Origin: Trypanosoma brucei
Taxonomy: Eukaryota
Assembly (NCBI GenBank): GCA_000002445.1
Contig: CP000071.1
Span: forward strand, 256,001-320,000
Length of the DNA stretch: 64,000 bases
Reading direction: 5' to 3'
The notes beneath the pieces are model-generated. The model was given only the letters and a program-made list of their open reading frames with translations. It did no database searches and was not told where the DNA came from. The position numbers and the translations under genes are program-made. This document shows, piece after piece, positions 10,112-43,327 of this stretch (position 1 is its first letter; every line of letters starts with the position of its first letter).

Positions 10112-10738
10112 TTAGCAACATCCACTCTTTTGACCTCCGCTGTTGGTTGCTGGGCGGTTATTACCGGTTAGTAATGGCCTTCCACCAGCAGTTGCGCCGC
10201 TGTTGGCTCCCTGAGCAGCCACACGTTTCTTAATATTTTTTGCCATCTCAATGAAAGCCGTCTCCACGTTGGAGGATTCTTTAGCACTTGTCTCCAGGAA
10301 GGGAATCCCGAGGCTGTCAGCAAATTCCTGTGCCATCTGCGTGTCAACGGCCTTCTTCGTAACGAGGTCACATTTATTGCCGACTAGCAGCTTGTTCACA
10401 TTCTCACTGGCAAACTTGTCAATTTCAGAAAGCCAAGTTTTTACGTTGTTGAAACTCTCCATATCGGTAGTATCATACACAATAATAATGCCGTGTGCCC
10501 CGCGGTAGTAACTACTGGTGATGGTACGGAAGCGCTCCTGGCCGGCAGTATCCCAAATTTGTAATTTAATAACTTTACCATCAATATCCAGTGTGCGAAT
10601 TTTAAAGTCCACACCGATGGTGCTGATGTAACTCTCCGTGTAGCTGTCGTCCGCAAAACGGAGAAGGAGACACGACTTTCCCACACCGCTATCGCCAATG
10701 AGCAACAGCTTAAAAAGGTGATCGTACTCTGTAGACAT
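10112..10738 (-). CDS. RAB1A: Small GTPase Rab1/Ypt1 family (208 aa)
   Basis: G1 GDSGVGKS, effector [10 protein letters not shown]3 WDTAGQE, G4 GNKCD, G5 ETSAK, and a C-terminal CC prenylation motif. It starts at an ATG. The neighbourhood matches my recollection of TbRAB1A on chr 8 (unverified). Confidence 0.93.
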
Positions 10739-13700: not shown

Positions 13701-14275
13701 TTTTGTTTGCTGTTGTTGTTTACAAATACTTCACCACGCACCCAATCGGAGAGGCAGCACCTTCCACACAAGTAGATATATATCCTACGTATAACACCTA
13801 TCGATCCCCTTTAGATTTTTCAATACACCTTCACAATGCGCATTCATATCCCCACCTCTCTTTTTGTTCTTTTTTTTTTTCCTTGTTCTCTTTCTTTCTA
13901 CATGGGATGTGAATAATTCATCTCATAAGGGAAAAGTTCCATCAGAACCGTGAAATATAAAGAAAACCGCGAGGTAAACACCCCACATAACCCTTAAACC
14001 TCCGCTCCCCCACCACTTGAATTCACCCCATGTAAACCTCCTCCACACATGCGCAGTCGGAACTACATTGAGTACCGACAGGACACAATAGTAATTGAAC
14101 ACAGAATTCGTCAAAGGAAATTTTAAAAAAAAAAATAATAATAATAATAATAATAAAACAAAAACAAAAAAAGAAGGGAGGGTGAAACAACAACAACTAA
14201 CCTCCAGCACACTGCAAGAAAGAGCCACGCCGCTTCCACCCGAACGCCCTCCTCCCCCCCTCCGCCTTTGTTCAG

Positions 14276-15262
14276 CTAATCTCGGCGTTTGCGGTAATTT
14301 TCACTGCCAGACCTGGAGCCGCTGCTTGCGCTTCGACTGCGCTCCCGACGTCTGCGGTCCCGCTTTTTATAACCGCGACTCCCCGCTGAGGCTTCACTGC
14401 TTCGGCGGCTGTACGATGACCGGCTGCTGACGGGACTGCCACTCCGGCTGCGGTTGCGAGTGCGGCGACGACCCCGACTGTTACTACGATGGCTACGGCT
14501 ACGGCTACGGCTACGGCTACGACTGCGGCTTCTGCTGCGGTTACGGTTGCGGTTGCGACTACGACGTCGTCTGCCACGGCTACCGCTACGGCGGCGGGGG
14601 CGATCGACCCGATCATCATCAAGGCGGCCCCGCTTTCCTTCCCGGCTTTGCTGCACGGAAAGACGGCAATCTTGCATGTACTGATTGTGCATCATTTCAA
14701 TCATTCGCCGAGCATGTGCGGGACTCGGAACATCGACGAAGGCACATTCCCCACGGCGACGGAAGCCAATAATTGGGGCGGCCTCCTCGAGTTTACTGCG
14801 CAGTTCCCTATCCGAGATTGACCGTCCGCTCGGACCTAAACCAACGAAAAGAGCCGTGCGGCCTCCCGCGCTGTTGTTGTAGCCCCCGTAGTCGGCACCT
14901 CTTCCATCAAAAGGAACACCACGCCCACGTTCCCTGTGTCGGCCTCGCTCCCTTTCACGTCCCCGTTCACGATCACGATCGCGTTCCCCTTCGCGATTAC
15001 TCCCACGACTATGTTGAACTACCATTCGCGCTTCACCGATATATTTGCCATCCATTTCAGTGATTAGCCTATCTGCAGCTTCCGGGCCCGCCACATCAAC
15101 AAAAGCGCAACGGCCACGAATGCGAACATCAGACACGGGGGCCACCTGCTCCAAGCGCTCCCAAAGCTGTTCTTTGCTGATTGTAGAGGCGGCTGGGCCG
15201 AGGCCAATGTACAATGATACCACTTCTGGGTTATCACTTCCACTCCCGTCTCTGGAATCCAT
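14276..15262 (-). CDS. TSR1: SR-type RNA-binding protein with two RRM-like domains and a C-terminal RS domain (328 aa)
   Basis: Two RRM-like blocks (LYIGLGP...RCAFVDV and LFVGLGP...ECAFVDV), an RD/RE-rich linker, and a long RSRSRS/RRRS C-terminal domain. This fits the T. brucei SR protein TSR1, which I recall lies next to RAB1A (unverified). Confidence 0.82.
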   Translation of the reverse strand: MDSRDGSGSDNPEVVSLYIGLGPAASTISKEQLWERLEQVAPVSDVRIRGRCAFVDVAGPEAADRLITEMDGKYIGEARMVVQHSRGSNREGERDRDRERGRERERGRHRERGRGVPFDGRGADYGGYNNSAGGRTALFVGLGPSGRSISDRELRSKLEEAAPIIGFRRRGECAFVDVPSPAHARRMIEMMHNQYMQDCRLSVQQSREGKRGRLDDDRVDRPRRRSGSRGRRRRSRNRNRNRSRSRSRSRSRSRSRSHRSNSRGRRRTRNRSRSGSPVSSRSSYSRRSSEASAGSRGYKKRDRRRRERSRSASSGSRSGSENYRKRRD

Positions 15263-18200
15263 CTTTTTGAAACGGCACAGAGACTCTCCTTTTCCTCTTC
15301 TTTCTTTCTTCCTTAATTACTTTCCTTCTTTATTGTTATTATTATTACTATTGTTATTCCCGGAGTCCCCTCGAATAATATTTGCTATTCCTCTCGTATA
15401 GTGATAGCAGCGTGATATTTGTATTTTCACCTTCTTGGTTGTGATCGTGCTCCGTTCTCCGTTGCCTCCACGTATGTTCCCCTCACCGTGCTTCACTTGT
15501 GTGTAGCCCCAGTGCCGTGAGTTTGTTTGTTCGGTTGGTTTTTCTTTTCTTTTCTTTTTCGGAGCTTTCTTCTGTACAGTAAATAAAAGTTAAGATATTA
15601 TATTTGCGTAAGAGGAAAATAGAAGAAAGTCGATTCCACACCGGTAATTAGTTAGAGGACCGCACACAAATAAATGATTAAACAAATGGAAGGGGGGGTT
15701 TAATGAGACGTGCAAGACCGGTGGAATTCACAGTGAAATCCCGACAGAAACAAAAGGTGCCATCACACAAGAAACGCGGCAAAACTAAACATTAGCTTTT
15801 TTTTAAAAAAAAAAAAGGCAACCCTGCGTGACTCGATAAATGGCCTCACATAGGATCACCTTTTCTCCCTGTTTCTTCCAACTCTTTATTCTCCAACGTG
15901 CGTGCGCATGCAAACATATTATCATAGAGAACAGCAGGAAATTGAAAATGTTGCAAACATGACTCAAATTTCCGAGTTACAGTTGGAAAATGTCATGGAT
16001 TTAATTATTTCAAATTTGACGTCCTTTTTGTTTAATTTTTTCTGCTTCCCCTTCCTTTGTATTGCCTTTCATTTCTATTTATCTCCTTTCTGTCTCCCTT
16101 TTATTCTTACCATGTCGATGTAAGTTTGAATTTGTCATGAAAAATAAAATAAGACCTACGAAAGAAAATGAAAAGAAGGGGTAAAGGGGGAAAAACTGAT
16201 GAAATGCGCATAATTAAGTTTAAATATTTAACACCCTTGAAAATTGTTATTATCAATATGTCCACAGTTATAAATAATGAGTTACGGGAATCAAATACAA
16301 AGCCACACGACACTCTTCAAGCACCGATATGATAACAAAAATTGAAATAATATTGAAAAAAAATTATAGGAATGGAACCAATAATGAGGGACAAAAAAAG
16401 AAAAAGAAAAAAACAAAACAAAGAGAGATTGAAGCCCTTGGAGGCAGAAGGGGAAAAGAAAAACAATAAATAAACGAATACATGGAAAAAAAAAAAGAAA
16501 CGGGACAACACGAGTAAGGGACGAAAATGAGAAAAATGTCCCTAAAAAAAGGAAACGAAAAACAGTGGAAAAAAAACGTGAAAGAAAAATTACACAACTT
16601 TGCAGCATGAGAAAAGCAAATAATGACAATAGAAAATTTTTTAAAAGAAAAAAGGGGCTCACGCACACAGACAAAAAAAACAGTAATTAAAAAAAAAACA
16701 CTCTACAAATTCAGACGACGAAGGAAAAAAGAAAAAAAGAAAAATTTAATTGAAACGAAATTATTTGGGTAGGAGAAAGTGGCGATGCTGAAACAAAATC
16801 TGTTGCGCATGTGGAGAAAAGAGCACCATCGAAATCTTCAAAAGAAAGCAAAAAAAAAAAAGTAAACATACTTGAAAAAACGTGAAATATTTCCTATCTT
16901 GAACCTGTTCGGATATGATCCCTCTTTTATCTTTTATTTCTTTTTTTTTTTGATCCCTTCGTCCAAATCCCCATCAAGGCACAGCATTCAGCACTTCTCC
17001 TTTTTCTTTAAAAGAAAATAAACAAGCATTAACAAAAAAAAAGAAGATAAGCCAGTTGCTATAATGAATAAAATGACTAGAAACAATTTGAAAAAAAAAA
17101 GGAGAGAAGGAAAAAAAGAAATGACACCATTTATTTTTTTTTCTTTTTTGCTTAGTTTTGCTCTTTGCCTATTTTCTTCCTTCTGGTGCTCTGCACTTCT
17201 CTACCAGTCTCGCACAGAAAAAGTCATACGTTATTTTTTTTTTCCCCACCTCACCAACCTGATTTTCATCATCTAATCTGGTAGTTGGGATTGCCTACTT
17301 GCGTTTCTTCATCGTAACACACACACACACACACGCACACAAGCATATTTATTTATTCATTTACTTATTTATTTATTTATTTATTTATTTATACATTTGT
17401 TTACTCCTTAGACGGGACATGGCCTCGGGAACGTACACACGTATTTATTTATACGCTGCAAGCATAGGCGAAAAAAAAAACAATAATAAGCATAATAATA
17501 ATAATAATAAGTGGAAATGCAGTGGCGACAGCCACCCACCCTCTCTCCTCCCCTCCCTTCCATGGAATACAATAATAAAACATTTTATTTCCCCAACAGG
17601 TTCTCAACGATTCATTATGTTTCGTTTTTCATTTATTTATTCTTATTATTTTTTTTTGAAATTTGGTCGGTTCCCGGTTACAGCAAATGAGGAAATGAAT
17701 GAGTGAAATAACACTTCACCAAAAAAAAACATGCAGACATTTACGAGGTAACGGAGGGACCGCCACTTTTTTTTTTTCTTTCGTAAACAAAAAGAAGAAA
17801 AGAGGCGGAGCCGAATATTTGCATCCGCATTCTCTTCTTCTGTGTACACTCGACCACGTTTATAATAATGCAGTGTACATTTTTACCTTATTTTATATAA
17901 TTATTTCTTCACATTTTCCTCCGAGATTGTCATTTCCGCCACCTGCAAACAACACAAGTCACGGAATTGAAGATATTTATAAACGCTTGAAGGTGGTGAG
18001 GAACAAAATGAATTGATATCAAAAAAACAAAACAAAAATTGGAAACCGTAAGAAGCATATGACAGCGAGGAATTAAAGTGCAACAGAAAATGAAATATAA
18101 TTATAAAAATGATAACAACAATAATAATAATAATAACAGTGATAACACCAAATATATAATAATAATAATAATAATAATGAAAATGAAAATAAGCGAACAA

Positions 18201-21200
18201 AACAATGCAATGATGTGAAGAGAACACACTGAAAGAAGAAGGTATGGGTATTGACGAGATGTGATGTGTTAGAGGGGAAAGTGAGAGAGATGAAATATAA
18301 TTTCAAAGAAAAAAGGAATTAAAAAGAATCAAGTAATATACCTTTTTCTTCTTTAATTTCTCTTTACCTCTTATATTGGTGCTTCTTCGATTCCCTTTAT
18401 TATTTTTTTTCTTTCGGTTTATTGTGAGTGTAGAGAAAAAAAAATTGGAGTGGCACCAAATCAGCACCGAAAGATCCAACGGTAGTTGGAGTTAAGAGCA
18501 AAACATAACATAACATTTATAATAATAATAATAGAAAAAAACACTCCATCTGTAAGAAAAATTTCTACACCCCTTACAAAAAACATCATTCAGAACAAAA
18601 AAGAAAAAAAAGCGAAATAATATTTTCAAGTAACTTTTTACTTATCTCTTTCCTGACTCACCATATGGCATATGATTGCCGCAGTGGAAAGAAACAAAAA
18701 AAACAAAAAAAGGCGAGTGGGAAGAGGGAGCACGCATCTAAAAATATATTTTTCTTAATAAAAAAAAAATTCATATCATTAATTGTTGTTTTTATATAGT
18801 TATTTGTATTTACAACAGAAACAACAGCATCAAAATCAGTAAAAGAAATGGAAGCGGCGCATTACTGGTCGGTGGCATTATAATAATATGATGAAGGTGG
18901 GGGGAAAATAAAAACGAGGAACGCCTAATCATTTCTAAAATTACTTTATCATTGGAAAATTAGAGACAATGGAGTAGAAATGAAATGAAATTCAAATGTC
19001 ACACCCATTTTTTTTTACTTATATTACCCACTCATAAAATAAAAAGGGTAAAAATAAAATAAAGTCCCCCGTTTCCGGTAGCGTTAACTCCCTCGACAAC
19101 CCTTGCAATTTAATATAATCAAAGCAGGAAAAAAAAAAAAGAGAAACAAAAATGTGTTTGTAAGTAAATATTTCATCGGCCGCTAGGCTTTTCTCCTTCC
19201 TTCTTTTTTTTTCGTTTCTTCCTTCCATCGTTTCCTTCTCCTTTTCAGGTACGTGGAGCAGTGGTATGAAGGGCCGGAAATAAAAATGTACGGAATAAAT
19301 ATAAAAGGGAGAAAAGAAAGAACAAAACAAAGAGCATGACGAGACCAAACCGTTTTACGCTTACATAAACAAAAACAAAGTCAAAAAAAGAAACATGCCA
19401 TTTAGCTGTTAGCTTGTTTCTGCTCGGCAGTCGTGCTTTTTATATATTTCTTATTTATTTATCTCCCGCTTCACAAGTTTGAGAGAATACAAAATGAAAT
19501 TAGGGCATCAATAAAAACAAAAAAATCATACTTTAAAAAAGACTGCAACAGCAACACATGGGGGAGAGATTAAAACATTTATTTTTATCTAAACATTTGC
19601 TTTAATTATATTTTATGTAAAATTGCACACGCGTGTGTAATATGTCCCCTCTTTTTTCTATTTTTCCCCCTTTCTTTGCCCGCTTCGTCACTCCAAATGA
19701 CTAACGGCATGAAAAGGAAACGAAACAGAAGAAGTACACTTATAATATTTACTTTTTAGTATTTAATTATCTTTTCATTGTTTATTTTTTTTTTTCCTTT
19801 CCCCCTTCCGTATTCTCCATTTAATATTTTGATACATAAGAATAATGACGCCAAAACAGACGAAAAAAAAATCTGACGACGACATCATAACATTCATCAC
19901 TTTATTATCATATCAGTAATAGAAGTAATGGCAGAAGCAGAAGTGATTGTAATTTCTTTCAATACTTAACGAAAAAAAAAAAAGTAACAATGGCACAATC
20001 AGCACACTCGCTTTCCATTGTCCTTTTTTATTTGTTTTTTTTTTTGGTTCCTTGATAGTCGCGTTTATTCGTTCAGTTTTGGGTTTTCATTTTATTCTCC
20101 AAAACAAAAAGAAAAGCACACATGCACCCGTGTGGAATAAAAACAAGAAACAAAAGAATTAATTAATTAATGACTTCAACTTTCATATTTGAGAAACACA
20201 GACACACACACACATACACACAACATATATATATATATATATATAGCATGAATGAAATGAGTTGAACAAATGAAAGAGCACATGAGAGGAAACACGAAAC
20301 ACAATAAAAACATATATTTATTTGTTTATTTAAAATGCCTACGCGGGTGTGTGCCCTTTTCTTCTTGGACTTTGTTCCTTCGTTACTTTCAAAAAAAACG
20401 TTAAAAACATCCGCTGATTGTTATTGATTTTTTTTTGCATCTTTCCTTCAACCCACTGGAAAATTGATACGATTATACCCCACCGTCTTTATTTTCGTCC
20501 CTTCAACTCTCTTTAAAATACAATGAATATTGGAGTGAACACGAAAAGAGGAGTAAAGCAGAAGAAAAAAACAAAGATGAAAAATTAGGGAAATACAAGG
20601 ACAAAAGGAACACACAACAAAAATAATAGTAACAATAATTATCGGAATAAAGCAATAAATAAGACAGCAACAACAACAACAATATTATTAAATAATAATA
20701 ATAGTAATAGTCAATAACAATCATCTTAATAATAATAATAAACGAACGAATAAAATGGAAAGTAAAGGGAAGACACAGAGAGAGAGAGAGAAAAGAAGAG
20801 ACAAAAAAGAGGGGAAAAGTGATGGAGCTCCATGGCTAAACCACTTACACTCAAGTAAATATTTACTAAATTATTCATTAATAATAATATATACGTTTAT
20901 ATTTATCTACACTTATCCAACACTTACTTATTTCTTGTCTTCTTTTCCTTATTTGGATTTTACTTTGTTTTATCAGTTGTTTCTCTTTTGTTTTTAAAAA
21001 AAATGGTGTAATCCCAAGCAGTCTCTCATGCTATTTCGTCCTCTTTTTCTAATTTTTCTCTTCTCTTCTCTCTTTCTTATTTTTTTTTCTTACAATTTAT
21101 GCCATACATGATTAAATATATTGAATAGGTAAATACATGGTTATATTGTACACATGTTTTATACGCGCAGTATCATCTTTATATTTGTCTGTTTGTTTTT

Positions 21201-24031
21201 TTTTTTAGGTTCTGCTCAAATACAAAGAAAACAGGAGCGACGGGGTATTATATACCTCTTCTTCTTTTTGTAACCCTCTTGGCTTTTTTTTTTTAATGCA
21301 CGTTAATTCCTCAACCCCTCTCTTGTTGCTTGTGTTGTTGTTTTTCATCTTTTACATTTGTGAATGTAATGAAATGGATAACAATAATATTAAACAATAT
21401 TATTCAATCAAATAAGATAAAGCTTATACACACGGAGAGGCAACAGACAAAAAAGAAAAAAAAGAAAAACTGTCATAACCCTCCCTTCCTCCGCTCGAAT
21501 CTTTTGAACAAAACGAACCAAAAGAAAAAACAAAAAACGAATATAAAATGAATCAAAACACGAGCTGAGAAATTTAGAACACACGCGCAAAATGAAAAAC
21601 AGCAGAGCATAAGAAAAACAATAAAGGAGAAAAACGGAGGAAAAATTAATGTTAAGGTGAAGTGGAAGGAAAGGAAAAAAAACATATGAAGCAACAAAAG
21701 GGAGATTGGGGCAAAAAAAAATCAAAAAAACACAAGAAGCATTCAAAAGAAAAGCACATTATAAACTAATCAATTGATTACTGTTAAAAACAGACCAATC
21801 AAATCAGCATGGGCGCACATTTATACATAAATATAACAACATCATAACATTCATATATATGTTTATGTGCATATATTTTCACGTTTATATATATTTGTAT
21901 TTATATTTAAACATTTATTCGTGAGGAATTTTATATACTTCCCAGGTATCGCTCACATTCTCTTTTCGTCCTTCATCTATTTAGTTTGTTTCTTTTGTTT
22001 TATTACTGTTTTATTACTACTATTATTATTGCTTTTATTGTTATCTTGTTTTCATTGGTTTTTGTTGCCTCGGTCTCGTTTCATTTTGTCTTTTTTTTTT
22101 TCATTGCGGTTTCATTTACGTCAATCTATCTTCAACTTCGACGGTATTAACCGAGCGGCTACGAGAATATTCATGAGAATACAAAACATATATATATATA
22201 TATTATTTATTTAATTTAATTTAATTAATACGAAATAGGGTAAGATTAGGTAAATACAAATAAGATGAGTGAGTGTGATGGCCACTTCTGTATTTTTGCC
22301 TTTTTGTTTGTTTGCTTGTTTGTTTGTTTTTTTTTATTTTTTCCGTTTTCTTTTTATTTGCTTTGTTTTCTTTTCAGTTTGGTACCAATAAGGGAGAGAG
22401 AGAAAAAGAAACAACAAAATTAAAACTCCACAAACGAAAACGTTTGGATAGGAAAAGAAAGGACAAAAGGTTTTATAAGGAAAAAAAAACGATTATTTTA
22501 AGTAGAGAACGGCACACAAAAACAAAAGGGTGAAAAAGATAAGAAGAAAGGTAAAATATCATCGACTGGGTCGTTTTTTTTCTTTTCATTATTTATCAAT
22601 CGGGTTGTGTCTGTTTGGTGTTTGAAAATTTTTTAAATTTGTGTTTAATTCATTTGTTTCGTTTCTGCTTTTTTTAAAGAAAGAATCAACAATCAAACAA
22701 AAACGGCGTCGGCAAATAAAAAGAAACGGAAAGATAACAACAAGTATCGTAGACTAATTTTATATATTTATAAATATCCATACAAATATAGTGCTATATT
22801 AATATATATATATTTATTTATTTATTTATTTTGTTTCATTTAAATGTAAAAAGAAAAAAGAAGATTGAAACAAAAACGGAGGAAGGGAGGGAAACATATA
22901 ATCAATCAACAAGGGGTAAATAAGAAAAAAAACAAAAAAGAAATTGGCGGCAATGTTTTCCCTTTGCGTTGCTGTTGTTGTTCTTGGTCGTTTTTTTTTT
23001 GCTTTTACTTTGCTTACTTTAAAGCTGCTTTTTTAAAAAATCAATACAAAGCCCCCCCCCGGCCCCAAACATTTTGCTTCGCCTCATTTTATAATTCCCC
23101 AATTAGTTGCACATTTCATTTATTTGTACAACACCGACAAGAGCGCAAAGGAAGTGAGAGCGGGAGAGGAAAAAAAAGAAAAGGAAAAAGAAAAAGAAAA
23201 AACAATACGGGGAAACAAAAAGTGACACATCACGCCTCGACAATATTAGTCATGAAATAATATTTGTATTTCTCGTTCATACTCCTCCTTCGATACCTTT
23301 TTTTTTTTTTCCCCCTCCCGCTTCTTTCTCATTTTCATATTCATTCCCATTTCCCTTTCTTCCATCTTCCTTTCTCTATCACTCTCCCCATTTTATTTAT
23401 AATTATATAAATAAATATATACATATATATATATATATATATTTATTCTTTCCAACTTTGTATGCTCTTACAAACACAAATACGCACAAATATATTTATA
23501 TATGTATTTATATTCATATAAATATATAAATGTGAATGTACATACCTGTGTGCAATTGAATGATTGGCGGAATATACATATATTTATTTATATTATTATT
23601 TTTAGTGCATTTGCAGCACGAGGTCAATTGCTCCTCTTCCTCATCGTCATCATCGTCGTTATTCATCTTCATTTTCTTTTCTTTCCTTCTTTATTCCTCC
23701 ACCACTACCTTTCCCATGCCTACCCTCGCCTTCCCCTCTTTATTCTTACCACCATTATAATAATATAACGCAACATAACATAAAATAACATATCATATAA
23801 TTATTATTTATTTAATATCATTAGTCAGTTTATCAATTGGCATTTGTTATTACTTGATACTTGGCATCATTTGGTGTCGTTTGGTGTTGTTGTTGCTGCT
23901 GCTGTTTTTTTTTCATTTTTTACTTTTTGCTTTTTTTGTGTACCAACACACACACACACACACACATATATACATATATATATCTAAAGATATATATATA
24001 TTACTGAAATCAATTAAATACATCTACTTCA

Positions 24032-24063
<32 letters not shown>

Positions 24064-27000
24064 ACGTGTCTGTATGTGTATTTCTACTTCATTTAATTAT
24101 TCTTTTTGTCGTTTGCTTTTTTATTTTATTTTATTTCCCCCTTCTTCCTCTTTAATATTGTGGTCACTACTGCTACTTTGTGTCACTGCTTCACCTCCCA
24201 CCCTCCGCTGCGTAATATATATATATATTTATTTATTTATATTAGTTCATCAATAGTTAAACTTATTTCAATTAATTTAATATTTTATTCCTTTTTCCTT
24301 TTCTTCCTCCTCTCTTATTAATTTATCCACATATTTTTGTACTTTCCTCCCGCATTCTTTATCTTCCTTCTTTTTTTTTCTTTTTTTTTTTTAGTTACCT
24401 CTTCCGATATCTCAATCGTACAAAAACAAAAAATGTTTTCTGCGGAAGAAAAAGAAAAACAGTACAAAATCGCTGGAGAATGGAAGCAATTAACGAATAT
24501 ATAAATATAAATATAAATATGTGAAATATAAATCGAAACGAAGGGATGGAGTGGAGTGGAGTGGAATGAAATGAAGTGGTGAAAAAAAAAAAAAAAGATG
24601 TTCGGACAAAACAAAAAAATGGAGAGAAATTTTTTATTAAAAGGAAAAAAAAGAAAAAAGAAGGTGGAAAAAGGCAACAAGCACTTCACAGGAAAATAAA
24701 ACAAATATGTGCATATGCAAAAAAAAAAACAACATTAAGGGAAGGAAAATAATAATAATAATAATAATAATAACAAGGATGATAAAAGAAAAAAAATGAT
24801 TTGCGCCCTTCTTCAATTACAACTATCCACCGGAAAAAAAACACACACACCACAACATTAATGTAAGTTATGTGTAAATAAATATATTTAAATATATTTA
24901 CTTATTTATTTCATTCGTTGAAATGCACTCGCTTAGAAATAATATACCGACTCCTATTAGTTAGTGTAAGTGAGCAGTCAATGATGTGATGATCGTGTTG
25001 GAATTTTATTAAATTAAAAAAAAAGAAAAAAAGAAATGATGAAACAAAAACCAAAAGAATGATAAACATTTAAATATTTATAATATATTAAGGTGTGTTT
25101 GTGTGTTTGAATGAGTGAATAAGTGAATGAGAAAGTCAACAAATGGAAATATTCCCCTTATATATATATATATATATTCTTTTTACTTTTTATTAAAATT
25201 CCATTCACCATTCCGCCCTCTCCCACACATACACTCAACCACGCACTTACATGGAATGCACCGCGTTATACAAATACATTTTAAAAAAAAAAAATTTATT
25301 TATAAAATATATAAATTGCGTATGCACCATATCAGTGCGTGAAGAAACCATGATGGCAACTCAACACTGTTGGCAGCTTGATCTGAGACAGAGAAACAAA
25401 ACACACAACAAAAAGAAAAAAAAAGGAAACTGAGTTACAGAGTAGAAACAAAATAAAATAAAAAAAGGGGGAAAAGCACAAGAAACACTATTGACAAGCA
25501 GCCCACCTTGTACTTAAATACAAGTGCATGCACTTATTCACTTATATATTTATTAATATTTAATTCTTAACGTATATACATTTTTACATATACCCTTCCG
25601 TTACATTGCGTTAACAATCATATTACAAATCCCTTCAGTACCCAAATTCCCTTGACTTTTATTCTATCTCTTCTTTCTCTTTTTCTTTTTTTTTTAAAAA
25701 AAAGGATTTTTTTTTCTTCATTTTCTTTTGTTTTTCTATTTTATTTTATTGTTCCTTTACAATTTTTGTTCGTGTTTAATTTCCCCTTTCCTCCCAATAC
25801 ATTTATTTAGACACAAACACACAAGCGGAAACAATTTTAAGACATTGCAACACAAATATAATTTACACACATACATTGAGATGGAAATGAAATGGGGACG
25901 TAAATTAATTATTTTATTTTTTTTCAAAAAAGGAAAGTGGAACCGAGTGGAGTTTATTTGAATGAGAGAAAAAAAATTTAAAGAAAAAAAACACACAAAA
26001 AAAACTAACAAAGACGGGAAAAGGAAACAGGGGAAAAAAAAAAGCAGCAGCAGCAGCAAGAGGTGAAGCAGTGAAAATAAAAATACAACAACAAAATCGC
26101 AACAATAACAGGAAAAAAAAACAAACAAGAATAATAAGAAAAAAAAAACATTTACGGATAAGTAATGGAAAACAAAGAAAAAAAAATTATAAAAGAGCAC
26201 AAGAAAAGACAAGAGAGAGAGAGAGAGGGAAAGAAAAAAAAACAGTTAAAAAACAAATAAATAAATAATAATAATAATAACACAAACGCAAAAAACAGAG
26301 ACGAAGTAAAAAAAAGAAAAAGAAAGAAAAAGAGGAAAGCTTAAAGCAGGCATGTTAAAAATATAAGAAAAGAGCGGAATGGAGTGAAATGGAATGGGAA
26401 CAGAAGGAAGAATCGTGCTTTTATTTCTTTTAGTTGTTGTTGTTGTTTTCTTTTCTTTTTTTTTTGCATGCAACTTTTTATTTATTTGTTCGATTGTTTA
26501 ATTTAGTTCATTTCTTCTTTTAAAAAAAAATGATTCGTTTTCCTTCTTTTTCTTTCATTGGTGTTTTATTTTTGCTTTGTTTTTTTTTGTTATTATTTTT
26601 TTTAACTATTTTTTGTTCTCCCATTGCATTTTCTTTAGGTTGTGAAGTGTGACGGTGGTTACGAATGGTAAAGGGAAAAAAAGGGGGAAAAGAAAGAAAG
26701 AAAGAAAAAGAAAAATGAGGGAGAAGATAAGCAAAAAGTATTTTTCTTTTTTTTTTAAAAAAAAACAAAAGTAAAAGTAAAAGAAGGAGCAATATATCAC
26801 AAATTTCTCTGTTGTTCTTTTTTTTTCTTTTTTTTCCCCCTCTTTTCCCCTTTTTTTTTTCTGTTTCTCTTTGCTTTTATTTTTATCTCACCTTTTTTAT
26901 TTACGCCCCACCCCCCATTCCCACGTAAACACACCGTTATGTTTCATTTCAACAATCTTTCAAAAGGGAACTCCAACAGGAAGAATAATAAAGATAATAA

Positions 27001-27742
27001 AGATAATGAAAAAGAGGAAGAGGAGCAAAAGCCCACGCAGCCCTGATAAAACAGCAGGTAAACGGGGGGGGAAAAAAAGGAGCAACATCAAAAAAAAAAA
27101 GAAAGAAATCAAAATAGGAACGTGAAAAATAAATAAATAATAATAATAATAATAAAACAAAAATAGTGATCGACAGTTATGTCAAACACATAGGGATTAG
27201 TAGATAAGACAACTTAAAAGAAAAGGAAAATGGAAACCGCCAGAAAATGAAAAAAAGGAAAAGATATAAAGTCAAATATAAAAAAAAAAGGAAACAAATG
27301 TCAAAGGAAAATGACGTGCGTCAAGCGAAACATTGGCCCACTACCAATAACACCCTCTTGGTTCTACAGGTTATGGGGAAGAAAAACAATAAACGAACAA
27401 GATAAGCAATAAAGGAAAAGAACAAAAAAAAACGAAAAACGAAAAGAACCCAGTCGGGTGGAGGAAACAGGAATAAACAAGAACGTAGGAGAAAACGAAA
27501 ACGAAAGTAAAGAAAATAATAAAGCAGATGCTCCTCCTGTCGCGGCAACGAGGAAACATCCATATCATGTCCCCTTCGGAACACTCTCGGGGGGGAATAC
27601 AAACGGAAACTCTCATATTTATGCGCAATCTCCAAAATGAAAACTTCCACTCTAACTTCTTGTTCGGTCGATTGGTTTTACTCCTCGTCAGGCTCATGTC
27701 CGTGTAACGTAACAGGTATTAAAATTGGAGAAGGAAAAGAGT
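15263..27742. other. 12.5-kb ORF-free, AT-rich, microsatellite-dense tract inside the unidirectional cluster
   Basis: The region has no ORF over 150 aa, and the few ORFs of 100-151 aa are poly-F/L/K low-complexity strings. It contains (CA)n, (TTTA)n, (AAT)n, (TA)n, (CAG)n and poly-A/T tracts. Confidence 0.7.
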
Positions 27743-29140
27743 TTAATTGAAGCGACATCCCATGGGCAACGTTGTCGGCATAACAGGTGTGGTAAATAAC
27801 TGTTGTTGCGGGTGTTGGTTGGTAATAAAAACTTGCCTCGTTGAATTGGGTTGAAGCTGCTGCTGAATGTACGCTTGAGGTTGCACCTGCTGGAGCTGAT
27901 TTGTACTTATAGCCATCATACACGACTGCTGTCCACCAGGTTGAACAATTGCATACCCCTGCGGTGGGCGGGAAATGTTGGAGTATTGTTGTGTAACGAA
28001 CTGCTGGGGTTGAGCCAATTGCTGCGGCTGGAGTTGCTGAGGCGGAGCCTTCCAAACGTATTGCATTACCTGTTGCTGCTGTTGTTGCTGGGAAAAGTCA
28101 CGAAGGTCCTGACCTATTGGGCTTTGCACGCTACCCACCTGACTAATTTGCTGGGTTGGTACCATCACCATCTGGCATCCAGTGGAACCATTTACATTTT
28201 GCACAGGTGTTAGGAACTGCACATAACCCGGTGGCGGTGCAGATGTCCCGGAAGCGAGGGACGGAGTGGCCTGAAGGCGCTGAGTTGCCCCTGGTGCCGA
28301 AGTTGCCATCGGCGAAGGAGGAGCCGCAAAGGATTGAACCATTTGATTCAAACCAACTGCCGGCGTAAACGCACCACTCAAGGCGGTTTGTTGCTGCTGT
28401 GGAACTACCGCAGGCCGTTTCTGCATGGAAACCGACAATAAACTCGAGGGGACAATTTGTGTTCCCATAGAGTACACGCCACCAGGCATCTGCACGATGG
28501 ATTGAACCCCTGCTGAGGCCCGAGCAACTTGTGGGTTGGCCAACGGCATTTGCTGCGCCACAGGCATCTGTGCGTGTTTCGATCGCTCCCCAACCCACTC
28601 GTAGGGAGGCGGGCAATCCTCCTGCGGATTATATGACGGAAGAGTTCGCTGGCCCGTACCGGCAGGCGGCTGATCATAACCGGCCACGGGATTTGCAGAG
28701 ACCAGAGCAGGTGGAGAAGTTGCGGAGGGTTCAGTCACACTCATCACACCGGGGGTTGGCGGCTCACTGGAACTCAGCGGCTGAGAGAAGCGCGAATATG
28801 CACTGAGTAGGCTCTTTGAGTCTACCTGATCCAACGTTCGTGACGTTTCAAAGGTCGAGTGACCGGACTCTTGAGAAACAAGGAGAGATTTGGAATCCTT
28901 CGAGCGTAACATCGCCTCAGTGTCCAGGGCCGTGTGAAGATGATTTGCAGCACCCTCTGGTACAACAGCCGTCGATGCAGGAGCCGCTGCCCCGGACCTC
29001 GCTTTGCGCATTACCATTATGTTGTCATCATCATCATCATCATCGTTCATTTGCCGTGTGAGGCTCTCCGTGATGGTGTCAAGATTATCTCGGTCATCGG
29101 AGGTGCAGAGAAACATCGTATCGTAATTGAATTCAGTCAT
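27743..29140 (-). CDS. Hypothetical Gln/Pro-rich protein with a PPPY (PY) motif and an acidic D7 run (465 aa from first ATG)
   Basis: Long ORF. The track start (29209) is a TTG; the first ATG (MTEFNYDTMF) is at 29140. It contains QQQQQQ runs, PPPYEW, and DDDDDDD. Confidence 0.5.
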   Translation of the reverse strand: MTEFNYDTMFLCTSDDRDNLDTITESLTRQMNDDDDDDDNIMVMRKARSGAAAPASTAVVPEGAANHLHTALDTEAMLRSKDSKSLLVSQESGHSTFETSRTLDQVDSKSLLSAYSRFSQPLSSSEPPTPGVMSVTEPSATSPPALVSANPVAGYDQPPAGTGQRTLPSYNPQEDCPPPYEWVGERSKHAQMPVAQQMPLANPQVARASAGVQSIVQMPGGVYSMGTQIVPSSLLSVSMQKRPAVVPQQQQTALSGAFTPAVGLNQMVQSFAAPPSPMATSAPGATQRLQATPSLASGTSAPPPGYVQFLTPVQNVNGSTGCQMVMVPTQQISQVGSVQSPIGQDLRDFSQQQQQQQVMQYVWKAPPQQLQPQQLAQPQQFVTQQYSNISRPPQGYAIVQPGGQQSCMMAISTNQLQQVQPQAYIQQQLQPNSTRQVFITNQHPQQQLFTTPVMPTTLPMGCRFN

Positions 29141-29873
29141 TGGTATAGGACTCAATGGACCGCAGTACAAATAACAATAGGATGCTATAGACGGAAAGAA
29201 GGCTTGCAACCTTTGCCCACGCTCGTCTCCAAATCAAATAATCCTTTTCCACAGATGCTTTCTTTTCCTCTTCCTCCTGTTGCTCTCACAGCTTCTTCGA
29301 CAACAATGCAGAAAAAAGACTTCTGCCTTTTCCTAGTCCTTTACTCTGTTTGTCTGTTTGTTTGTTTGTTTTTTTTTAATTTTTTCTTTACAATTTGTTT
29401 TTTGTGTGTGTGGTTTTTCTTGGCTTCCTTCAAAAATGATGATTTTCTGTTCTGTATTTTTTTTAGCTTTTTTTTCTCTTTAAGCAGTACCTTCTTCTCA
29501 ATTCGCTTCCCTTCTTTATCGCTCGTGTATCTGTTGCTTTTTTTTCTTGATAATCTACAAGAATTTAAATGCAAGTTGGAGAATATTTTACAAAAAAAAA
29601 AGGTCGAAATGAGAAGTAGCGGGGATGTTATCAATGCATTTTGTATCTCGAAGCGTAAGAACAGCTGGCAAAACAGACGGAGCTGCCAAATGGGGGAAGT
29701 AAACCTATTCAAGAAATAAACAAACACTACTAAAATTGCGAAACAGTTTGTAAAGATCAGGCATATGGAAGTCGAAAAAAAAAACACTCGGAAACCATGA
29801 AAGTTAAAAAGAGCGAGGGAATGTTTTTCAGTCAGCACCGCAAAACAAAACAAAACAACAATTCCACTCGTCT

Positions 29874-30356
29874 CTACTCCCCATCATTGAAAGGTGGTGC
29901 ACCAGCTTCAGTAATAGCATACATACGTGCAAGTGAGTTATAACCCATTACGTCTCCTGCGCGTAGCAAATTTCCCGCGTCGCAGTTGAAGGGGCTTCTG
30001 GCGTCAGGTTCCGTTAGCAAACTAATGATTGCACGACAAACACTGGAAATAGTCCACGCAGGAGACCACCGACTTTTCAAAATATCAAGGCACACAGCGC
30101 CCGTATCGAAGTTAACATTAGGATGAAAAACTTTCGTCACAAACCACGCAACGGGAGGCACCATTGGGTAATCCGGTGGTATTTGTAAACGAAGACAAAA
30201 ACTACCACCTTCATACGGTGTGTCTGGAGGTCCATCTAACACCGCTTCCCATGAAAATAAATTATTTGATTCCGCCAGCTTTAGCACAACATCATTGTCA
30301 GGGTCACGCTGAACTTCTTTTAGCTCTTTCGAAAGCCGGCTGATGGGGCACGGCAT
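29874..30356 (-). CDS. Ubiquitin-conjugating enzyme E2 (UBC fold), 160 aa from ATG at 30356; an alternative upstream ATG at 30392 would add 12 aa
   Basis: HPN motif followed by the catalytic Cys (FHPNVNFDTGAVCLDIL) and an E2 N-terminal helix (RLSKELKEVQRDP). The track start at 30446 is a TTG. Confidence 0.88.
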   Translation of the reverse strand: MPCPISRLSKELKEVQRDPDNDVVLKLAESNNLFSWEAVLDGPPDTPYEGGSFCLRLQIPPDYPMVPPVAWFVTKVFHPNVNFDTGAVCLDILKSRWSPAWTISSVCRAIISLLTEPDARSPFNCDAGNLLRAGDVMGYNSLARMYAITEAGAPPFNDGE

Positions 30357-31094
30357 AACAACAGTTATTAAACTCCTACAAACTCTACACATATCATCAC
30401 AGAGGTTTTTTAAAAAAAAAAATGTAAGAAGCTCAATTACGTACAAACAGGAAGTTAGTTACACAAATTGAAGCTTGTAATAAGAAACACAACAATAGCG
30501 TAAAAGGAATACATGACAGGCAAAAGCCTACAACTCCACAACAAAGGCATAATACAGTTGTATGTATAAACCAATTAGAGAAAGTTGGATTGTTTGTTTT
30601 TTTTTTTTTTAAGGCCAAACAAACACAGTTCCCCACAAAAAAAGTTTCTTCACCCACACAATTAAAAAAAAAGGAACAGCTCCCCCCCCAAAAAAAAAAA
30701 ACTGCTCTCTTTCGCATCAAACCGACAAGGAAAACGCACCGAAATCTACAGGAGTGGAAAAAAAACAATAATATAAAATTTTAAAAAAAGAAAAAAAATA
30801 CAATCCTTTACAACTCTCCAAAAAAAAATTTTAGATGAAGAAAAAAAGTGTATAATACTCTTAAAAACAGGCTTTGCATGGAACTGAAAAAAATATTTAA
30901 AAAAAAAGTTGCAAACACAGAGGTAGTTAAAAAAAAAATACAAAGTATATAACATTACAACTCTAGTTTTTTTTAATTGGCAACGATAAAACCATAACGA
31001 GAAGCCTTAAGTAACACCCAACAATGACACGTTTGCGTGTATGTAATCCCTCACGCTAATCCTTGGCTGCTACACCGAAACGGTACTACTTGGA

Positions 31095-32507
31095 CTACAA
31101 AAGACCAACTAATGTGAAAGTAAGGGAAAATAATAATAAGCGTAAATTGTGGTTCTTATTGCTTGCTGCACTTCCCATTGAAGACAAACGACCTTCACCA
31201 AACTCGATCAGAGAAGCAACTCCAGCCACCTCCATCGTTTTATTCAGTTTGACCTCTTTTCTCCGCACGGCAATGCTGGCAATAGTAATCAGCTGTGTGG
31301 ATGTATTCAGATCTTCAAGCATATGAGAGACCACACGTGTGTCACTCTCCAGTCGCTCCGAGAGATTTGGAAAGTTGTCCATAAGTTTCTTCCTCATATC
31401 ATCCAGAGATTTGGGTGTCACCACCCAAGCTGTTTCCCCGCACACCTCAGCAGCCTTCTTTGCTTTCTCATCTGCAGCATTTCCAGCTATCTTCCTTAGC
31501 GTATTTTCCATGAGTGGTAGGTAATGAGCCCTTATACTTTTGAGATTCCTTGCATACCTGCTTACCTTCTTAAACACATTCTGTGCTTTACTTACTGCTT
31601 TCGCAACCTCAGCAACGGCCCGCTTCACCTGATCCATGTGTCCCCCCGGACGCTTTGCATCCGCTTGGCTCCGTTCCTCCACTTTAGAAACCATTGCAGA
31701 ACGGCTCACAGCTTGCTCCGTGAATGCGTCCACTGCACCTTTTAGGCCTCTGTACTGCTCAACCATCAAACACACTGCTTGTGTCTGATTCAGAGTAAGA
31801 TTGTACTTTCTGGTGATAGAGGCCTTTGTTCCCTCGACCAGTTCCTTCACCGTAGACTCACCTTTGAGCGCCACCGACCTCCAAGTAACGACATTGTAGA
31901 GCACAAACTCCAGCTTCCACAGCTCCCCGGAACTTTCCCGGGTGTCATCCTCCAAACCTTCCGAAGCACCCTCAGGTAACGTACTAAACAACTCCAACAG
32001 CGTACCGTTAAGGGAATCGGAAGACACGCTTTCAGCAGCTCCCTTGCATTTTTCAGCCGCGCTCCTGACTCTCCAATTGGAATTGTGTCCTGCCACCTCC
32101 TTCAACATGCGCTCTAACGCTGCTATACGATTGCTCCTGATCTCTTCAATATTCTCCGCCCTAAACTCAGTCTCAATGGATGCGGTTTCAGCTTTCTTGG
32201 CGGCCTCAGTAACGTTGGAAGCAACACGCTTCGCACGCTCGACGGGATCGGTGGCATTTCTGTTCTCCCACAAGACATCCTCAGCCAAAGTTACATATTC
32301 ATCACTCCGAGTCTTGGCATTCGATATCTTCAATGATTCGGTAGTTATCCAATATTTTAGGTCACGGACGGCATCTTTCAGTCCCCTGAACTGCTTCAGA
32401 GCATTACACAATGTAACAGTTTGCTCAAGTGTAAGATTATTGTTCTTACCAACAGCAAATGGCATGCACAGGAGTACAACTGCTGTGAAACAGGTGAATC
32501 GCGTCAT
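31095..32507 (-). CDS. Ala/Lys-rich predicted alpha-helical secreted protein with signal peptide and C-terminal hydrophobic GPI-anchor-type tail (array copy 1, 470 aa)
   Basis: The track start is a TTG; the first ATG gives MTRFTCFTAVVLLCMPFAVG, a classic signal peptide. The body is helix-favouring (A, K, E, L) with several NxS/T sites. The C-terminus GSAASNKNHNLRLLLFSLTFTLVGLL looks like an omega site plus hydrophobic tail. Confidence 0.8.
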   Translation of the reverse strand: MTRFTCFTAVVLLCMPFAVGKNNNLTLEQTVTLCNALKQFRGLKDAVRDLKYWITTESLKISNAKTRSDEYVTLAEDVLWENRNATDPVERAKRVASNVTEAAKKAETASIETEFRAENIEEIRSNRIAALERMLKEVAGHNSNWRVRSAAEKCKGAAESVSSDSLNGTLLELFSTLPEGASEGLEDDTRESSGELWKLEFVLYNVVTWRSVALKGESTVKELVEGTKASITRKYNLTLNQTQAVCLMVEQYRGLKGAVDAFTEQAVSRSAMVSKVEERSQADAKRPGGHMDQVKRAVAEVAKAVSKAQNVFKKVSRYARNLKSIRAHYLPLMENTLRKIAGNAADEKAKKAAEVCGETAWVVTPKSLDDMRKKLMDNFPNLSERLESDTRVVSHMLEDLNTSTQLITIASIAVRRKEVKLNKTMEVAGVASLIEFGEGRLSSMGSAASNKNHNLRLLLFSLTFTLVGLL

Positions 32508-32900
32508 TTGGCTCAACTCTCTCTTGGATGTGGAAATCTTGGAATGATGTTTCGTCTACAAAATGGTAAGGAAAGATAGCAACAAAAGTTGATACTATGC
32601 ATGAAATGACACGGAGAAAATGAGACCAACTGGAAGCCATAATTAGTCACTTATGCACAAGGCACAACATCTTTACGGAAAACACAACTAAAGTCGTTGA
32701 CATACATGGACTACACAACACAGAAGCAGTGATGTATATGACAGTATGCCTCAGTCACACTTCCATATGTGCATGCACGCTCATAAGCATTGCCAACTTT
32801 CTTGTTGTTCGTATCTTATCCATTCATAAAACATCCCCAACAGAGTGGCATCCATTGACAGCATGCGGTAATAAGTGCCTCCAGCAGCTGTCAGACAAGA

Positions 32901-42934: not shown

Positions 42935-43327
42935 TTGGCTCAACTCTCTCTTGGATGTGGAAATCTTGGAATGATGTTTCGTCTACAAAATGGTAAGGAA
43001 AGATAGCAACAAAAGTTGATACTATGCATGAAATGACACGGAGAAAAGGAGACCAACTGGAAGCCATAATTAGTCACTTATGCACAAGGCACAACATCTT
43101 TACGGAAAACACAACTAAAGTCGTTGACATACATGGACTACACAACACAGAAGCAGTGATGTATATGACAGTATGCCTCAGTCACACTTCCATATGTGCA
43201 TGCACGCTCATAAGCATTGCCAACTTTCTTGTTGTTCGTATCTTATCCATTCATAAAACATCCCCAACAGAGTGGCATCCATTGACAGCATGCGGTAATA
43301 AGTGCCTCCAGCAGCTGTCAGACAAGA

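Follow-up and report, generated by a model that had tools for sequence, protein, structure and literature searches.

Trypanosomes control nearly all of their gene expression post-transcriptionally, and 3′ UTRs of several kilobases are thought to be a major site of this control. Such UTRs are a documented class among the mRNAs of regulators in Trypanosoma brucei. For instance, the class includes DRBD12, with an mRNA of about 8.4 kb, ZC3H20-22, at more than 4 kb, and RBP10 (Tb927.8.2780), the 3′ UTR of which reaches 7.3 kb. DRBD18 has been found to suppress internal processing sites in other long T. brucei 3′ UTRs, and Kolev et al. (2010) reported that processing inside the 3′ UTR leads to non-coding RNAs in 394 T. 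brucei genes.

The locus that we describe here lies on T. brucei chromosome 8, in a window of 64 kb (the whole stretch of DNA analysed), where the gene order is Rab1A, TSR1 (Tb927.8.900), a gap of 12,480 nt (window positions 15263–27742), the Q-rich Tb927.8.910 and the PEX4-like Tb927.8.920. Both TSR1 and Tb927.8.910 are on the minus strand and transcription runs from right to left, so the gene upstream of the gap is Tb927.8.910 and not TSR1. We consider it probable, at roughly 0.7, that nearly all of the gap is an exceptionally long 3′ UTR of Tb927.8.910 (Table 1). The feature is an extreme case of a known kind, already present in published tables, and not a new element. A preliminary description had offered four explanations without preferring any of them. 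The evidence favours the first, in which the gene upstream has an unusually long 3′ UTR, and neither non-coding RNA genes nor a decayed gene remnant found support.

Table 1. Features of the TSR1–Tb927.8.910 interval, in window coordinates
Feature	Position	Strand	Basis
TSR1 (Tb927.8.900) CDS, RRM domains and RS-rich tail	14276–15262	-	Pfam RRM_1 match; homologues named TSR1
Predicted TSR1 5′ UTR, about 0.52–0.53 kb, two short upstream ORFs	15263–15795	-	Signal scan
Last strong polypyrimidine tract before TSR1, CCTTTTTTTTTTTT at 15818–15805, with AGs at 15796 and 15785	15785–15818	-	Scan
Predicted Tb927.8.910 3′ UTR, about 11.7 kb, 3′ end estimated at 15,960–16,070	15960–27742	-	Transcript length
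Cluster of 13 sense-strand polypyrimidine tracts of at least 10 nt, up to 32 nt	16393–17121	-	Scan
(AC)12.5	17317–17341		Simple-repeat scan
(TATT)14.5, after (AC)12.5	17346–17403		Simple-repeat scan
(ATA)n	18097–18178		Simple-repeat scan
(AT)10.5	20225–20245		Simple-repeat scan
(TATA)n	23404–23446		Simple-repeat scan
Imperfect (AT)n, 99 nt; AT-rich inverted repeats with adjacent tracts	23966–24064		Simple-repeat and repeat scans
(AAT)8.7	24748–24773		Simple-repeat scan
(AGC)5.3	26043–26058		Simple-repeat scan
Tb927.8.910 Q-rich CDS, 465 aa, 1398 nt including stop, ATG start	27743–29140	-	ORF
Predicted Tb927.8.910 5′ UTR, 44–154 nt	29141–29295	-	Polypyrimidine/AG scan

Tb927.8.910 encodes an unstudied, kinetoplastid-specific Q-rich protein and is located directly upstream of the gene for the splicing regulator TSR1. 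Its ORF matches T. equiperdum TEOVI_000822700 at 100% identity and has collinear orthologues in T. vivax, T. cruzi and T. rangeli. Counted from the ATG, its length agrees with the 1398 given in the published table; the listed ORF starts at a TTG and extends to 29209. Pfam searches of the protein gave no recognised RNA-binding or kinase domain, and its association with the network of mRNA regulators is through promiscuous yeast two-hybrid hits only, as a low-complexity protein. Word-index searches with the protein, both as a single sequence and as a four-species alignment, were dominated by Q-rich words and returned T. equiperdum, T. rangeli and T. cruzi only, and an exact sequence look-up of the TSR1 protein matched no record.

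The gap resembles several of the systems that have been described. With the RBP10 class it shares a multi-kilobase AU-rich 3′ UTR, polypyrimidine tracts, a co-directional polycistron, and internal signals that must be skipped, although the UTR that we predict for Tb927.8.910 would be about 1.6 times as long as that of RBP10 and about 30 times the median (388–400 nt). With transcripts and lncRNAs that arise inside UTRs (Kolev et al. 2010; Guegan 2022, on "grumpy") it shares a long non-coding interval flanked by genes of one strand and many possible splice and poly(A) signals. In contrast to grumpy, which hosts a snoRNA, the gap contains no snoRNA or conserved structure according to Rfam. Tb927.8.910 does not appear in the files of the ARE/GRE paper.

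The remaining 11 inter-CDS distances in the window range from 384 to 3,639 nt, with a median of about 2.0 kb, and the gap is 3.4 times as long as the largest of them. The preliminary description was thus right that the gap lies far above the usual spacing; its coordinates were exact, and it correctly saw no plausible ORF between these two genes of the same strand. ORFs from start to stop reach 151 aa at most, and stop-to-stop frames 162 aa; all of them are runs of A/T translated into low-complexity, F/L/K-rich sequence, and the longest have no match in Pfam. At gathering thresholds, Rfam gave no matches in the window or in three further loci, and in E-value mode it gave only sub-threshold look-alikes of microRNAs and snoRNAs, on AT-rich or purine/pyrimidine hairpins. 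No tRNA gene was predicted anywhere in the window, nor in the orthologous gaps of T. vivax and T. cruzi. A repeat search of the gap recovered only low-complexity families, with no dispersed repeat and with inverted repeats that were all AT-rich or low-complexity. The gap has a GC content of 30.8% and no GC island, as every 300-nt window within it is at 43% GC or below, against a mean of 51.7% in CDS windows.

An oversized gap occupies the same position in other trypanosomes, measuring 8.47 kb in T. vivax and 7.09 and 7.74 kb in two strains of T. cruzi. When the gaps of T. brucei, T. vivax and T. cruzi were compared with each other by blastn and six-frame tblastn, the only matches were of low complexity and not collinear, and no conservation of sequence, coding or structure was detected among these three species. 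Between the two T. cruzi strains, substitutions amount to 2.0% in the gap, 1.8–2.5% in other non-coding sequence, and 0.2–0.4% in CDSs. The syntenic comparison called for in the preliminary description therefore shows a gap that is kept in T. vivax and T. cruzi while its sequence is not. An assembly artefact is ruled out by a T. equiperdum contig that matches the gap at 99.3% over its first 2.3 kb, together with the presence of the same gap in independent assemblies of two other species.

These data bear on the idea that the gap is the remnant of a decayed gene or retroelement, or that it hides a small unannotated gene or non-coding RNA gene, which we regard as extremely improbable. The one point in its favour is size, as the T. 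brucei gap is about 4–5 kb larger than those of T. vivax and T. cruzi, a lineage-specific excess. The low GC content throughout the gap, the lack of Pfam, Rfam, tRNA and interspecies tblastn matches, and the restriction of its repeats to low-complexity families all speak against it, as does a divergence between T. cruzi strains that is like that of non-coding sequence and unlike that of CDSs. Because a 3′ UTR model covers the gap continuously and the syntenic gaps are not conserved in sequence, the finding becomes ordinary in the terms of the preliminary description, for which either result would have made it so.

In trypanosomes, the site at which an mRNA is polyadenylated depends on the next splice signal used downstream. 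The strong polypyrimidine tract nearest upstream of TSR1 is a putative trans-splice signal for this gene, and because polyadenylation is coupled to downstream trans-splicing, it would also set the poly(A) site of the mRNA upstream. Between this signal and the stop codon of Tb927.8.910, both on the same strand, the gap has no coding potential and a UTR-like composition. A transcript model connects the CDS with the far end of the gap: Tb927.8.910 is listed at a length of 13,225 nt (PMC9639853, Table S6), a database-derived value. Our estimate of the 3′ UTR is this length minus the 1398-nt ORF and a 5′ UTR of 44–154 nt, for which candidate AG acceptors are found at 29185 or 29285–29295, each after a short polypyrimidine tract. 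The 3′ end that we infer in this way would precede the putative TSR1 trans-splice tract by about 140–250 nt. In the tables of PMC9639853, the Tb927.8.910 CDS has 15,553 reads in rRNA-depleted RNA against 3,132 in poly(A)+ RNA, a ratio of about 5 that is similar to the 4.7-fold ratio of RBP10 with its 7.3-kb UTR, and that weakly suggests that the CDS is far from the tail.

It is also conceivable, if unlikely, that the real 3′ UTR of Tb927.8.910 is much shorter and that the gap is mostly cut into independent spliced and polyadenylated non-coding RNAs, possibly functional. The sense strand of the gap carries 62 polypyrimidine tracts of at least 12 nt, 15 of them of at least 20 nt, with an AG after each, and some internal processing is thus likely, whether it would yield shorter isoforms or UTR-derived non-coding RNAs. 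In particular, the cluster of tracts at 16393–17121, close to the distal end of the UTR, may be a site of alternative processing. The alternative processing reported in 394 genes also favours this possibility, as does the annotation of about 1,490 lncRNAs, about 20% of which are actually parts of UTRs. Moreover, the authors of PMC9639853 caution against relying on the 3′ UTRs annotated in databases, and their Table S6 gives 2,303 nt for RBP10, whereas the real RBP10 mRNA is longer than 7.5 kb. In a nanopore direct-RNA study, no more than five transcripts longer than 10 kb were recovered in full length, Tb927.8.910 not being one of them, and no full-length 13-kb molecule of Tb927.8.910 has been reported. 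On the other side, the listed transcript model covers the gap, and neither sequence nor structure is conserved across species. The two possibilities are not mutually exclusive, as minor isoforms may exist alongside the long mRNA.

If the gap is mainly one long 3′ UTR, as we prefer, transcription of the minus-strand polycistron would cover all of it as non-coding sequence, with about 11.7 of the 12.5 kb forming the 3′ UTR, about 0.15–0.25 kb a spacer, and about 0.5 kb the TSR1 5′ UTR. The spacer would bear the polypyrimidine tract and AG that trans-splice TSR1. We infer that the roughly 60 internal tracts are mostly skipped, producing a very long mRNA, the length of which would be due to this skipping and to the poly(A) site being set by the next splice signal in use. 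To judge from the examples of RBP10, DRBD12 and ZC3H20-22, a UTR of this length, AU-rich and of low complexity, probably holds the abundance of the mRNA low, and probably supplies many low-specificity sites for RNA-binding proteins.

The new point here is the absence, on the sense strand only, of the RBP10 destruction motif UA(U)6 (UAUUUUUU). The sense strand of the gap contains none, against 7.3 ± 2.8 expected, while its antisense strand contains 10 and the other sense-strand intergenic sequence of the window contains 11 in 17.7 kb (Fisher P = 6e-5 for the sense-strand depletion in the gap). Positional isomers of UAUUUUUU have normal counts in the gap, and other AU-rich motifs (UAUUUAU, UUAUUUAUU and the PUF-like UGUANAUA) are in mild excess or unremarkable. 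The RBP10 UTR is likewise almost devoid of UA(U)6, with one in 7.3 kb, and that of Tb927.8.910 would have none in about 11.8 kb. The depletion is a strand-specific constraint of the type expected of mature mRNA, and it suggests that the entire tract has been selected as bloodstream-form mRNA. A transcript without UA(U)6 on its sense strand would evade RBP10-mediated destruction in bloodstream forms. In RBP10 pull-downs, the Tb927.8.910 mRNA has been found enriched 1.55–1.70-fold, under the 3-fold threshold for "bound" mRNAs. The depletion also counts against a gap divided into independent RNAs, as it spans all 12.5 kb, and more than about 5 kb of unconstrained RNA should carry at least one UA(U)6 (P < 0.05 at 0.58 per kb).

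Pol II start regions are broad and gene-poor, and internal start sites are known in T. brucei gene clusters. The gap, as a gene-free interval of several kilobases with flanks on the same strand, resembles such regions, and a positionally conserved gap would fit a conserved chromatin boundary. Nevertheless, we find it very unlikely that the gap is an internal Pol II start and/or termination region, marked by H2A.Z/H4K10ac or base J/H3.V. tRNA genes are common, although not obligatory, at Pol II start and stop sites, and there are none in or adjacent to the gap in T. brucei, nor in its counterparts in T. vivax and T. cruzi. The gap also lacks a GT-rich bias, its sense-strand G+T of 0.539 being inside the 0.51–0.57 of the other intergenic regions of the window, and its (AC)n/(GT)n microsatellites have the same strand bias as those in the rest of the window. 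Furthermore, the transcript model passes through the region, and the sense-only depletion of UA(U)6 indicates a mature sense RNA. The composition of the gap is otherwise that of its neighbours, with a density of polypyrimidine tracts equal to that of ordinary intergenic sequence in the window. All the microsatellites named in the preliminary description were found, and poly-A/T runs are also present, but "packed" is not distinctive: at 3.8 simple repeats per kb, covering 5.8% of bases, the gap falls within the 2.0–4.2 per kb (2.7–6.1%) of four other inter-CDS regions, two more having none.

At about 11.7 kb, the Tb927.8.910 UTR would have few rivals in length among T. brucei 3′ UTRs. The conservation of the gap and the absence of the motif leave its classification unchanged, as an annotated UTR of a known type, but a gap that is unconserved and yet persistently large, together with the sense-only absence of the RBP10 motif, bears on UTR length and on the avoidance of stage-specific decay. 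It is rather doubtful, although worth considering, that the extreme length is a selected ancient trait, or that the gap is a source of functional lncRNAs controlling the Q-rich protein or TSR1. If this were true, a UTR of at least 7 kb would have been kept since before T. brucei, T. vivax and T. cruzi diverged, despite a complete turnover of its sequence, and all 12 kb would have been purged of the RBP10 destruction motif in T. brucei. The UTR would then be a regulator that depends on length or binding capacity, acting through slow co-transcriptional maturation, low abundance, or the sponging or scaffolding of RNA-binding proteins.

An ORF-free desert of 12.5 kb with genes on the same strand at both ends, as described in the preliminary description, is indeed present between TSR1 (Tb927.8.900) and the gene for a Q-rich protein. 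The gap (15263-27742; 12,480 nt) has no ORF above 151 aa and no stop-to-stop frame above 162 aa, and its longest frames, all of them F/L/K-rich translations of A/T runs, gave no Pfam matches. Its length is an outlier, the remaining inter-CDS distances in the window being 384 to 3,639 nt. Every microsatellite previously listed was found as well, but this repetitiveness is ordinary for the window: the density of simple repeats (3.8 per kb), that of sense-strand polypyrimidine tracts (5.0 per kb), the base composition, and the G+T content all lie within the spread seen for the window's other long (multi-kb) inter-CDS stretches. Strand composition flips locally at 23263-24262, where the sense strand is 0.45 A and 0.26 U, polypyrimidine tracts number none on the sense strand and seven on the antisense strand, and (AT)n and (AC)n tracts reach their greatest length.

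The genes of the window form a co-directional array on the minus strand, such that the Q-rich gene lies upstream of the gap and TSR1 downstream. Published tables name Tb927.8.890 as Rab1A, Tb927.8.900 as TSR1, and Tb927.8.920 as a ubiquitin-conjugating enzyme (“PEX4?”), and they list Tb927.8.910 as [quoted passage not shown] and give its ORF as 1398 nt, exactly the length of the Q-rich ORF of the window, which is thus identified as Tb927.8.910. We found no main-text mention of this gene in the literature searched. The window matches a T. equiperdum contig at 99.3%, and the Q-rich protein is 100% identical to TEOVI_000822700 of that species. Beyond the UBC gene, 30965-40611 and 41392-51038 are a tandem duplication (period 10,427 nt; 99.7% identity, with 26 of 9,647 nt mismatched). 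Both units contain a gene of the GARP surface-protein family (473 aa, Pfam PF16731) and one for 2197 aa that lacks a Pfam domain.

Genes of the window, and the corresponding gaps in other Trypanosoma assemblies (L003, L005, and L008)
Feature	Position	Strand	Source or size
Protein kinase	1844-2896	minus	ORF listing and Pfam
768-aa protein	between protein kinase and Rab GTPase	minus	ORF listing
Rab GTPase	10112-10738	minus	ORF listing and Pfam
RRM/RS protein (TSR1)	14276-15262	minus	ORF listing and Pfam
Q-rich protein	27743-29140 from first ATG	minus	ORF listing
Ubiquitin-conjugating enzyme (UBC)	29874-30356	minus	ORF listing and Pfam
GARP-family gene and 2197-aa gene, two copies each	beyond UBC gene (higher coordinates)	minus	ORF listing and Pfam
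Gap, T. vivax (L003)	Q-rich orthologue (464 aa) ends 1534; TSR1 start 10001		8.47 kb
Gap, T. cruzi (L005)	Q-rich orthologue (597 aa) ends 2914; TSR1 start 10001		7.09 kb
Gap, T. cruzi CL Brener (L008)	Q-rich orthologue ends 11791; TSR1 start 19533		7.74 kb

In trypanosomes, the next trans-splice signal that is used determines where polyadenylation occurs, one to a few hundred nt upstream of it. Ahead of the TSR1 ATG, the final strong polypyrimidine tract is C2T12 at 15818-15805 (minus strand), with AGs at 15796 and 15785. The transcript of Tb927.8.910 is listed at 13,225 nt (PMC9639853 Table S6), of which 11.8 kb would be UTR once the ORF is taken off. On the minus strand, candidate splice acceptors that precede the Q-rich ATG give a 5′ UTR of 44-154 nt, and together with the listed length this predicts a 3′ end at about 15,960-16,070, that is, 140-250 nt upstream of the C2T12 tract. 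The listed length and the positions of the processing signals are thus self-consistent, and the gap would be partitioned into around 11.7 kb of Tb927.8.910 3′ UTR, a short spacer, and around 0.53 kb of TSR1 5′ UTR. An unusually long 3′ UTR of the upstream gene, one of the explanations originally offered, is therefore the best supported: the desert is accounted for by existing transcript annotation and is a known kind of feature. Read counts add weak support, as reads over the Tb927.8.910 CDS are about 5 times more abundant in rRNA-depleted than in poly(A)+ RNA, a ratio similar to that of RBP10, whose CDS lies 7.3 kb from its tail. Under RBSR1 RNAi, the Tb927.8.910 CDS signal increases 2.5-fold in rRNA-depleted RNA (log2 1.32, padj 6e-14) and does not rise in poly(A)+ RNA (log2 0.26), a pattern common to other very long mRNAs in the same data (PMC9639853 Table S6). 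If the C2T12 tract is the TSR1 splice signal, the putative TSR1 5′ UTR (15263-15795, minus strand) has about 530 nt, around four times the 130-nt median, and contains two upstream ORFs that are short, at 9 and 11 codons.

The laboratory behind PMC9639853 itself calls database 3′ UTR annotation unreliable. RBP10 is listed at 2,303 nt (Table S6), yet around 70% of its mRNAs exceed 7.5 kb. A nanopore direct-RNA study reported no more than five full-length transcripts that exceed 10 kb, none of them from Tb927.8.910. The sense strand of the gap holds 62 polypyrimidine tracts of at least 12 nt, 15 of which have at least 20 nt, and Kolev et al. reported 394 genes in which alternative processing inside 3′ UTRs yields shorter mRNAs and non-coding RNAs. 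It is thus likely that shorter isoforms and UTR-derived RNAs coexist with the long Tb927.8.910 mRNA.

The other explanations proposed for the desert were unannotated non-coding RNAs, a remnant of former genes, and an internal transcription start or termination zone. A cluster of non-coding RNA genes does not fit: ARAGORN found no tRNA genes in the window, Rfam gave no match at gathering thresholds, and the look-alikes returned in its E-value mode were all weak and fell on hairpins that are AT-rich or purine/pyrimidine. One such hairpin (23148-23327), formed by a purine-rich arm (AGCGGGAGAGGAAAAAAAAG...) and, 116-118 nt away, a pyrimidine-rich one (...CTTTTTTTTTTTTTCCCCCTCCCGCT), folds as RNA at -63.5 kcal/mol (z = -3.2 vs shuffles) and accounts for several sub-threshold plant microRNA and snoRNA matches on both strands. 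A gene or retroelement remnant does not fit either, since repeat finding returned low-complexity families only and every 300-nt window of the gap has a GC content of at most 43% (those above 42% all abut the flanking genes), compared with an average of 51.7% for CDS windows; accordingly, nothing points to a gene, whether hidden or decayed, or to a retroelement. As for a transcription start region, the gap shows none of its sequence correlates.

Using TSR1 orthologues to reach long contigs in three assemblies, we found that the gap recurs in T. vivax and in two T. cruzi assemblies, at loci where nearby intergenic distances are 1.5-3 kb. None of these gaps contains called genes, a tRNA, or an Rfam match, and blastn and six-frame tblastn revealed no collinear similarity among the T. 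brucei, T. vivax, and T. cruzi gaps, only low-complexity matches. Between the two T. cruzi strains, gap substitutions amount to 2.05%, as in non-coding DNA elsewhere (1.8-2.5%); the CDS rate (0.2-0.4%) is 5-10 times lower. In these genomic comparisons, the position of the oversized gap is therefore conserved across the genus and its sequence is not, a situation that the preliminary description had said would make the desert ordinary, as on its own terms it is. Contigs of five short-read assemblies (T. equiperdum, T. rangeli twice, T. vivax, and T. conorhini; L001, L002, L004, L006, and L007) end inside or at the edge of the interval, which suggests that it is long and low-complexity there too. 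The CL Brener order is 2184-aa gene, UBC, Q-rich gene, gap, TSR1; given that the 2184-aa gene directly adjoins UBC, the GARP gene and the duplication look lineage-specific.

The Q-rich orthologues align end-to-end (blastp E = 1e-49 to 1e-73). Across four Trypanosoma species (window 27743-29140, minus strand; L003 140-1534; L005 1121-2914; L002 236-1852), the block C-P-P-P-Y-x-W, a motif of the PPxY type, is invariant, and P-x-G-[CY]-[RH]-F-N is conserved at the C-terminus. The Q-rich middle expands, taking the protein from 465 to 597 aa. With RBP10 as bait, the Q-rich protein was a strong hit (7,898 reads, 21 fragments) in a yeast two-hybrid screen that its authors term promiscuous.

In bloodstream forms, RBP10 causes the destruction of mRNAs whose 3′ UTRs carry UA(U)6, the motif to which it binds. 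Among five motifs tested, this one was picked beforehand from the literature, and TATTTTTT occurs 0 times on the sense strand of the gap and 10 times on its antisense strand, the corresponding counts for the window's other inter-CDS sequence (17.7 kb) being 11 and 7. Dinucleotide-preserving shuffles predict 7.3 +/- 2.8 sense-strand copies, and 0 of 300 shuffles had none (Poisson P 7e-4). The positional isomers AUUUUUUU, UUUAUUUU, and UUUUUUUA (13, 11, and 13) and C-, G-, and A-AUUUUUU (5, 4, and 6) have normal counts. Where a U-run of at least 6 follows an A, that A is itself preceded by U in 0 of 15 cases on the sense strand of the gap, vs 28 of 51 in three control sets (Fisher P = 6e-5). The nearest sense-strand copies of UAUUUUUU are at 14130 and 30793, so that TSR1, the gap, the Q-rich gene, and the UBC gene share one motif-free stretch of 16.6 kb. 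At the expected 0.58 motifs per kb, sense RNA free of constraint should hold at least one copy once its length passes about 5 kb, which argues that most of the gap belongs to an RNA whose survival in RBP10-expressing cells matters. The mRNA of Tb927.8.910 was recovered 1.55-1.70-fold in the RBP10 pull-down, under the 3-fold threshold, and was not classed as bound; the 7.3-kb UTR of RBP10 mRNA itself has just one UA(U)6 copy. Depletion was not found in the T. cruzi gaps, and in the T. vivax gap the expectation, 0.76 copies, is too low to reveal one.

The median T. brucei 3′ UTR has 388-400 nt, and in an early map the longest reached about 6 kb. The mRNAs of RNA-binding proteins and kinases are known for multi-kb 3′ UTRs, which are thought to lower abundance and permit dense, flexible regulation. 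The UTR of RBP10 holds six or more regulatory regions that act independently; in UTRs of this kind, DRBD18 keeps internal processing sites suppressed, and ZC3H28 prefers 3′ UTRs that are long and low-complexity. The gap fits this class in every feature tested; it is longer than the examples described and unstudied. What remains of interest is that its size is conserved without its sequence and that the RBP10 motif is absent from the sense strand only.
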